Below, piece by piece: positions 18,951 to 18,972 of a DNA stretch of 64,000 bases (positions are counted from its first letter, which is position 1; each line of letters starts with the position of its first letter). The translations under genes were made by a program, and so were the position numbers. The notes below the pieces were generated by a model that was not told where the DNA came from, did not search any database, and saw only the letters and a program-made list of their open reading frames with translations. Origin of the DNA: a virus; IMG/VR virus record IMGVR_UViG_3300028840_006907, positions 224,001 through 288,000 of that record. One strand, given 5' to 3'.

Positions 18951-18972
18951 CCCTACCTTCATGTCGTATAAT
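18951..18972 (+). promoter_or_regulatory. conserved promoter-like motif CCCTACCTTCATGTCGTATAAT about 45 nt upstream of the glycosyltransferase gene
   Basis: Near-identical copy at 61801-61823 upstream of a paralogous glycosyltransferase gene; contains TATAAT. Confidence 0.5.

Follow-up and report, generated by a model that had tools for sequence, protein, structure and literature searches.

Three candidate -10-type promoters with a shared upstream extension in an uncultivated huge phage

The locus and its source genome

The window, by which we mean the whole 64,000-nt stretch analysed here, is part of an uncultivated huge phage genome of 390-470 kb. Its genes include those for the terminase large subunit, the portal, the head protease and giant collagen-repeat structural proteins; it is AT-rich (about 35% G+C outside the collagen genes), and 5.3% of it is intergenic. 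Two of its proteins, of 875 and 693 aa (hereafter GT875 and GT693), have residue-identical copies on two metagenomic contigs, JGI 3300017963 Ga0180437_10000019 (388,651 bp) and ENA ERZ27256798 k141_1708087 (469,021 bp), and the DNA that flanks their genes on both contigs is that of the window, a collagen-repeat gene excepted. A nucleotide search of the GenBank phage collection returned no close relative of the window, and a back-translated search of IMG/VR returned no relative of GT875.

GT875 and GT693 each contain GT2 and SAM-methyltransferase domains along with TPR repeats, and they are paralogues, as the preliminary description of the locus had proposed (34% identity over 330 aa, E 2e-41). 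On the opposite strand, an operon headed by a small gene encodes proteins of 88 aa, 518 aa (VWA-like), 299 aa, 174 aa (JAB-like) and 213 aa (ThiF/E1-like). The 88-aa protein is unrelated to the glycosyltransferases, and the public gene call on the contig gives its gene the same start. The JAB-like match, at E 1.6e-4, lies below Pfam's own cut-off; in its predicted make-up, the operon resembles a ubiquitin-like conjugation system. It is conserved across all relatives examined, and its VWA-like protein has more than 1,000 homologues, many of them on contigs of 280-512 kb. Five related loci (L005, L006, L007, L157 and L158; 79-56% identity) keep the layout of the window, in which a large glycosyltransferase/TPR gene on one side and the small gene with the VWA gene on the other diverge from an RNA array of about 1-1.4 kb. 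L158 entered the comparison of gene order and RNA array and was left out of that of promoter sites.

To judge from its sequence, the phage employs bacterial-type signals, namely AGGAGG-type ribosome-binding sites, which are common in the window, and a TTGACA-17-TATATT promoter. Together with a DnaG-type primase, the conserved promoter and the strong Shine-Dalgarno sites point to a bacterial host, and on these grounds a reading of the motif described below as an archaeal TATA box was rejected. NCBI lists three contigs of the clade (P0055, P0083 and P0239) as MAGs of 'Candidatus Nanoarchaeia archaeon'; this label is probably the result of mis-binning, given that the types of signals and replication genes point to bacterial hosts.

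Several further features of these genomes were seen along the way. Inteins (PF14890, PF14528) interrupt the UvrD helicase of L006 and also lie within the GT693 orthologues of several relatives (P0128, P0130, P0136 and P0147). The second of two giant collagen-repeat proteins differs between contigs of one and the same phage, through either length polymorphism or mis-assembly: it measures 3,078 aa in the window and 2,980 aa in L004, and in L003 it is split into 581 + 2,404 aa. Collagen-like coding repeats also dominated the output of a repeat finder run over the whole window, and 36 nt just before the terminator-like hairpin that closes the RNA array resemble such coding units (repeat-search family D7) and may be a remnant of a collagen-like gene.

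Table 1. Coordinates of the features discussed, in window numbering unless a relative is named
Feature	Position	Strand	Sequence or signal	Remark
Motif copy 1	18951-18972	+	CCCTACCTTCATGTCGTATAAT	-10 hexamer TATAAT 18967-18972
Motif copy 2	61803-61823	+	CCCTCCTTCGTGTCGTATAAT	21 nt; -10 hexamer TATAAT 61818-61823
Motif copy 3	17791-17807	-	ATCTCGTGTCGTATAAT	new; -10 hexamer TATAAT 17796-17791
Leader element, copy 1	18993-19006	+	AACATTTTATTAGG	from alignment of upstream regions
Leader element, copy 2	61845-61859	+	AACATTTAGTTTAGG	orthologue L131 keeps AACATTTAATTTCCAGG
Leader element, copy 3			TAACTTATTACAAGG	aligns more weakly than copies 1 and 2
GT875, 875 aa	19016-21643	+		methyltransferase + GT2 + TPR + GT9-like; downstream of copy 1
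GT693, 693 aa	61866-63947	+		GT2 + TPR + methyltransferase; downstream of copy 2
88-aa protein	17484-17750	-	AAGGAGG ribosome-binding site	downstream of copy 3
Operon headed by the 88-aa gene	12027-17750	-		five genes
Hairpin at copy 3	17806-17783			8 bp
Weak sigma-70-like site	17867-17838			upstream of copy 3
RNA array	17889-18940			promoter to terminator-like hairpin
Canonical promoter	17889-17917		TTGACA-17-TATATT	upstream of RNA array
tRNA-Leu(UAG)	17956-18032			cassette of array
Hairpin RNA, about 55 nt	18085-18196			non-tRNA; cargo about 18113-18168
Permuted tRNA cassette	18250-18429			cargo 18281-18402
Permuted tRNA cassette	18478-18660			cargo 18511-18633
Permuted tRNA cassette	18682-18857			cargo 18713-18832
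Near-match to motif core	18552-18562		TGTCATATAAT	1 mismatch
Collagen-like unit	18869-18904			36 nt; may be a remnant
Terminator-like hairpin	18899-18940	+	14 pairs (18899-18930) + T run	closes array just before copy 1
Second repeat	12979-12998	-	TGGTATAATATTTATA(A/G)AGG	55 or 44 nt before a small gene
Second repeat	21974-21993	-	TGGTATAATATTTATA(A/G)AGG	55 or 44 nt before a small gene
Collagen-repeat protein	3040-10053			2,337 aa
Collagen-repeat protein	22251-31487			3,078 aa
Cassettes, window	17926-18857			array locus
Cassettes, L005	3757-5214			array locus
Cassettes, L006	4142-5075			array locus
Cassettes, L007	8309-9713			array locus
Cassettes, L157	8296-9590			array locus
Cassettes, L158	8719-9750			array locus
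RtcB, L005	12197-13543			near array
RtcB, L006	9755-12094			near array; 779 aa
Rnl-type RNA ligase, L158	2692-3699		PF09414	near array
UvrD helicase, L006	12483-14948			interrupted by inteins
212-aa protein, L129	3774-4412			about 5-5.6 kb upstream of window start

An RNA array with permuted tRNA genes

The divergent genes are separated by a 1.2-kb intergenic region that holds the array, with its canonical promoter and five cassettes. One cassette carries an ordinary tRNA-Leu(UAG), and another a conserved RNA of about 55 nt, with a homologue in L005 and two or three hairpins (TGGCGTTAAAACCA..., CTTCCTGCAGAAATCAGGAAG..., CTGGGCCAAGGCTCAG). In the remaining three the tRNA gene is circularly permuted, and the junction falls within the variable region: each unit runs from the T arm and 3' acceptor strand through an acceptor-closing hairpin to the 5' acceptor strand, D arm and anticodon arm. 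In this native order neither ARAGORN nor Rfam calls the three units. After rotation of the cargo ARAGORN calls tRNA-Cys(GCA), tRNA-Lys(UUU) and tRNA-Ser(UGA), of 88-91 nt; the rotation likewise works for L005 and L006, and 0 of 300 random windows give a call when treated in the same way. Permuted tRNA genes have been reported in red and green algae, an archaeon and prasinoviruses, and in the literature consulted we found no report of them in bacteriophages.

A single flanking module surrounds every cassette, whether the cargo is a tRNA, a permuted tRNA or the small hairpin RNA, and reads P1a-(Y)CUAAY-P2a-GNGC-UUACA on the 5' side and A-GCNC-pyrimidine bulge-AAC-UU(G)-P1b on the 3' side. Across six phage loci a script picked out 26 candidate cassettes, of which two or more are spurious or mis-paired. 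In 20 of the 26, P1 forms a perfect 8-bp helix outside the conserved motifs; its sequence takes at least 18 different forms, and covariation is seen in the inner helix as well (GAGC/GCTC, GAAC/GTTC, AATGC/GCATT). The module has no match in Rfam, and its exact pattern is absent from IMG/VR; in GTDB genomes the pattern has 23 matches, all devoid of tRNA features, against a chance expectation that we estimate at about 34. A strict bulge-helix-bulge reading was dropped, as the geometry of the unpaired stretches is wrong.

We suggest that the module could serve in processing, circularisation or self-cleavage. It would bring the ends of the cargo together and be cut; ligation would then close the cargo into a circle, or its ends would remain paired to give a two-piece tRNA. 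The acceptor hairpin would next be opened by RNase P and 3' processing, to be followed by addition of CCA, which the scheme includes because the permuted units encode none. Genes for RtcB lie near the array in L005 and L006, where the length of the L006 protein makes an insertion such as an intein probable, and another RtcB is encoded on a 512-kb relative; a PF09414 Rnl-type RNA ligase lies near the array in L158. An RtcB of the window's own phage was not found among the best 120 homologues. We consider this array more striking than the promoter motif, and it merits a separate study.

The hexamers of the array promoter and their spacing are kept in L005, L006, L007 and L157 (TATCTT in the last), while the spacer varies. 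This conservation is good evidence for a bacterial host and for transcription of the array by the host polymerase.

Three motif copies and their orthologous sites

Outward from this array, towards the two divergent genes, point two (copies 1 and 3) of three copies of a motif that may be written TCRTGTCGTATAAT. Copy 1 lies exactly where the preliminary description had placed it. Copy 2 is likewise present, its start now corrected from 61801 to 61803, and the distance between the two, given there as 43 kb, measures 42.85 kb. The two copies differ by one indel and one A/G change, matching at 20 of 21-22 positions, and their TATAAT ends 43 and 42 nt upstream of the respective ATG (19016 and 61866), in keeping with the claimed distance of about 45 nt. 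The proposed search for further copies brought to light a third that had escaped the preliminary description, on the other strand, with its TATAAT 40 nt before the ATG (17750) of the 88-aa gene. No others lie in the 83,343 bp that could be read, which comprise the window and 10 kb fetched beyond each end.

All three copies, the only ones before genes in that sequence at up to three mismatches, are intergenic and directed at the next gene, whose ATG follows the end of the copy by 40-43 nt. The zone 30-60 nt ahead of a start codon, read in the proper orientation, takes up just 1.3% of strand-positions, and that all three copies should fall into it has a chance probability of about 2e-6. Within the window, a search with CCTTCRTGTCGTATAAT at up to three mismatches finds 3 sites where 0.25 are expected, a number reached by 0 of 100 shuffles. 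The 17-mer has two unrelated matches in IMG/VR, in coding-like sequence, and TCGTGTCGTATAAT has at least 120 matches in metagenome contigs, chance-like among the matches listed, which do not include the phage's own contig. Within the array, TGTCATATAAT in the acceptor-closing hairpin loop of the permuted tRNA-Lys comes close to the motif core; it is not conserved in L005 and is probably a chance match.

The part common to all three copies is the core TC(A/G)TGTCGTATAAT, in which an 8-nt extension, TC(A/G)TGTCG (TCRTGTCG), precedes the hexamer; the C-rich part CCCT(A)CCTTC is limited to copies 1 and 2, that is, to the two glycosyltransferase genes. A three-way alignment of the upstream regions recovers the invariant TC.TGTCGTATAAT block together with shared T runs, among them one about 40 nt upstream of the hexamer, and shared leader positions, which follow the pattern AAC(A/T)T(T/A)T and are succeeded by the ribosome-binding site. 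The shared T run, core and leader element together define a promoter-leader cassette of about 85 nt, and between copies 1 and 2 the similarity runs on through the leader to the ATG. Some 5-7 nt after the hexamer the sequence is G-rich (ATAGGG in copy 2, ATACGGGA in copy 3, ATACGGGA or ATATGGGA in orthologues).

The surroundings of the copies differ. The terminator-like hairpin that closes the array forms a composite terminator-promoter with copy 1, and because so strong a hairpin precedes it, the GT875 gene needs a promoter of its own. Copy 3 constitutes the 5' arm and loop of a hairpin, with TATAAT in the loop and the T run CTCTTTTTTT after it, and in L005, where a G-U pair replaces a G-C pair, this hairpin is preserved; copies 1 and 2 form none comparable. 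Folding gives the three regions no advantage over shuffled sequences (z = -0.62, +0.19 and -0.57), and Rfam, searched at E up to 10, has no match to the motif core; the two matches that overlap copy 1 (V_IGR5 and SNORD127) are sub-threshold and due to chance. A mini-ORF or ribosome-binding site opposite the C-rich tract (GAAGGAGGG) was also considered and rejected, as copy 2 has no well-placed start codon.

Orthologous sites in relatives separate the conserved from the variable parts of the motif. Of 11 such sites read, 10 carry a TAnnnT hexamer. On the GT875 side these are CTCTTCTTAACGTTGTATAAT in L005 (TATAAT), CCTCCTCAATATTGTATTAT in L006 (TATTAT) and CACCTTCAATTTCTCGTATCAT in L157 (TATCAT); on the GT693 side, CCCTCCGTTAATTCCGTAACAT in L131 (TAACAT), CCCCCCCTAAAAACAGTATCAT in L132 (TATCAT) and a site in L133 that reads TATTAT or TATATT; and on the 88-aa side, TCTCGTGTCGTAAAAT in L005 (TAAAAT), TTTCGTGTAATAAAAT in L006 (TAAAAT), TGGGTATAAT in L007 (TATAAT) and GGAGGATATAAT in L157 (TATAAT). 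The remaining site, before the GT875 orthologue of L007, has no promoter-like sequence, just a terminator that abuts the ATG. Every site that looks promoter-like has a G at -13 with its TAnnnT, the pattern expected of a sigma-70-family -10 element, and all seven glycosyltransferase promoters compared join this G to a C/T-rich tract at -28 to -22. Across the 83 kb, the architecture of a C/T tract followed by GTAnnnT occurs 39 times, against 37.5 in shuffles; given this lack of enrichment, we claim no wider class.

The extension behaves differently. In relatives, TCRTGTCG is kept only at the 88-aa gene, in the two closest of them, and not at the orthologous glycosyltransferase promoters, from which it follows that it is ancestral only at the 88-aa gene and, at both glycosyltransferase genes, peculiar to the lineage of the window. 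By our own count, copy 1 matches its L005 orthologue at only 14 of 22 positions, far fewer than it shares with copy 2.

Two observations on other promoters may be added here. In L157 (about 8298) and L132 (about 2172), the glycosyltransferase promoters, in which a C-rich tract is followed by GTATCAT, end 4-5 nt before the ATG and leave no ribosome-binding site, which suggests that these mRNAs are leaderless, whereas leaders of about 35 nt are predicted at the copies in the window. A second repeat, TGGTATAATATTTATA(A/G)AGG, with a proper TGn extended -10, sits 55 and 44 nt before two small minus-strand genes (2 matches against 0.01 expected).

Promoter readings and known systems

Overall, we think it somewhat probable that the three sites form a small family of -10-type, sigma-70-family promoters that share the promoter-leader cassette, a reading based on their sequence, copy number, placement and pattern of conservation, and on the absence of RNA structure. 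The term promoter-like in the preliminary description is supported by the position and orientation of the copies, their perfect -10 hexamer, the occurrence of copy 3 at an unrelated gene and the TAnnnT at most orthologous sites. The phage-specific promoter class suggested alongside it fares less well: the motif is not a general promoter class, with three copies in 83.3 kb, and its C-rich segment occurs at the two glycosyltransferase genes only.

From these features we infer a transcription start, a polymerase, co-regulation and, conceivably, an extra factor. Each site would supply a -10 hexamer that matches TATAAT at 6 of 6 positions, preceded by TC(A/G)TGTCG; with a start some 7 nt beyond the hexamer, the transcript would have a leader of about 35 nt that contains both the ribosome-binding site and the AAC(A/T)T(T/A)T element. 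The reader would most likely be a sigma-70-family holoenzyme, that is, host RNA polymerase, because the hexamer of the relatives keeps T-12, A-11 and T-7. Neither copy 1 nor copy 2 appears in a consensus scan for a -35 hexamer near TTGACA 16-18 nt upstream, and the scan offers only a weak ATGAAA at 16 nt for copy 3; by eye, the corresponding positions read GGATTT in copy 1 and AATACT in copy 2. A TGn extended -10 is absent as well, as all three copies read TCG-TATAAT and the scan finds no TG before the hexamer of copy 3. The upstream extension probably makes up for both, in the case of GT875 and GT693 perhaps with help from the C/T-rich tract (-28 to -22), and it may do so directly or through a DNA-binding factor encoded by phage or host.

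The contrast between the motif and the canonical promoter of the array suggests that at least two promoter types coexist in this genome, and temporal control is a possibility. The likeness of the cassette at three otherwise unrelated transcription units makes it probable that GT875, GT693 and the 88-aa/VWA/JAB/ThiF operon are under common control. One may go further, as a doubtful speculation, and take TC(A/G)TGTCG-TATAAT as the signature, in this one lineage, of a small regulon that is read through a phage-encoded specificity factor, the signal having been copied from the 88-aa operon, where it is ancestral, to both glycosyltransferase promoters; the phage would then turn on the conjugation operon in concert with glycosylation of the virion or the cell surface.

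On another reading, an RNA polymerase or sigma-like factor encoded by the phage would recognise the whole block from about -20 to +3, with TATAAT only a part of it, in the manner of T7-type or SPO1/T4-type programmes. A contiguous conserved block that abuts the predicted start, the G-rich sequence after the hexamer in copies 2, 3 and the orthologues, and the lack of a -35 box all speak for it, and that the paralogous copies resemble each other more than copy 1 resembles its L005 orthologue fits selection by a lineage-specific reader. We nonetheless regard it as unlikely: the 83 kb read contain no phage RNA polymerase or complete sigma factor, three copies are few for that length, and the orthologous sites vary freely outside TAnnnT, as sigma-70 sites do and a long specific promoter would not. 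Nor does it seem probable that the operator of a repressor or activator, made up of TC(A/G)TGTCG and, before GT875 and GT693, the C-rich tract, merely overlaps an otherwise ordinary promoter. Such an operator would explain why the extension is lineage-specific and the hexamer is not, and TCGTGTCGTA may be seen as a tandem TCGTR repeat; a 212-aa protein with a sigma-70 region-4-type helix-turn-helix at residues 45-91 has its gene about 5 kb upstream of the window. Region 2 is not detectable in this protein, which is possibly a transcription factor but not a complete sigma factor. Copies 1 and 2 show no dyad symmetry, however, and an operator would in any case be compatible with the sigma-70-type promoter that we favour rather than exclusive of it.

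That the similarity is a functionless relic of the glycosyltransferase duplication, or a recent recombinational copy-paste, we consider very improbable. The two genes are indeed paralogous, with a likeness between copies 1 and 2 that reaches the ATG through the leader; yet at 34% protein identity neutral DNA would be unrecognisable, and here 20 of 21 bases match, while the third copy stands on the other strand before an unrelated gene and the orthologous sites keep the hexamer and the C/T tract. Equally remote, in our estimate, is a role at the RNA level, in which the motif would act, for instance, as attenuator, terminator or protein-binding leader in a transcript that begins at a more distant upstream promoter. 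Taken alone, copy 3, with its conserved hairpin and T run, resembles an intrinsic terminator, and a weak sigma-70-like site is available upstream of it; copies 1 and 2 lack a comparable hairpin, however, none of the three folds surpasses its shuffles, and little transcription would reach copy 1, directly behind a terminator. A structured cis-regulatory RNA was rejected on the same lack of a stable fold and of an Rfam match over the motif core.

If the sites are promoters, they provide a first handle on transcription units in an uncultivated clade with genomes of 390-510 kb, and suggest that the two glycosyltransferase paralogues and the VWA/JAB/E1-like operon are co-regulated. The motif itself is a useful annotation and brings no new principle; it is a feature that looks functional but ordinary.

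Among known systems, ECF-sigma promoters combine AAC at -35 with CGT at -10 at a spacing of 16-17 nt. All copies contain CGTATA, but none has AAC at that spacing, and copy 3 offers TGAAAT just 13 nt upstream; this class was rejected. Like the motif, T7-type promoters consist of some 20 bp of unbroken conserved sequence that runs up to a G-rich start, but the single-subunit RNA polymerase that reads such promoters has no gene in the 83 kb, and the orthologous sites vary too freely. T4 middle promoters carry a MotA box, (a/t)(a/t)(a/t)TGCTT(t/c)A, centred at -30, and depend on a phage factor for their reading. As in the motif, another element replaces the -35 box while the sigma-70 -10 hexamer is kept, and copy 2 even carries a MotA-box-like TTTTGCTTAA; this lies at about -41 to -34, however, and not centred at -30, its counterpart in copy 3 is TTTTACTTAA, and copy 1 has none. 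We saw no MotA or AsiA homologue, and membership in this class was rejected for want of a MotA box.

The promoter-early stem-loops (PeSLs) of T4-like phages are composite terminator/promoter cassettes (PMC2839356, PMC4122927), and they too are short regulatory cassettes repeated between unrelated genes of a large phage. Copy 1 resembles them in that a stem-loop terminator is directly followed by the promoter, and the greater similarity of copies within the genome than between orthologues is what would be expected if recombination exchanges cassettes. In contrast to PeSLs, copy 2 has no stem-loop or terminator-like site, the hairpin of copy 3 overlaps the hexamer, there are only three copies in 83.3 kb, and the -35 box is missing; no indel or shuffling junctions were observed at the copies, and the genes around copies 1 and 3 keep their order in five relatives. 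We therefore do not count the sites as members of the PeSL family.

In -10-only and extended -10 promoters, finally, the classical TGn stands at -15/-14, whereas here its place is taken by TCG, with the TG two positions further up (TGTCG TATAAT), and the extension of the motif is unusual in being 8 nt long and lineage-specific. At the same time, the motif shares with these promoters a perfect TATAAT, the retention of T-12, A-11 and T-7 at orthologous sites, a fitting distance to the gene, and conserved bases just upstream of the hexamer that replace the missing -35 box. Most simply, then, the motif family may be regarded as ordinary bacterial-type promoters with a lineage-specific upstream extension.
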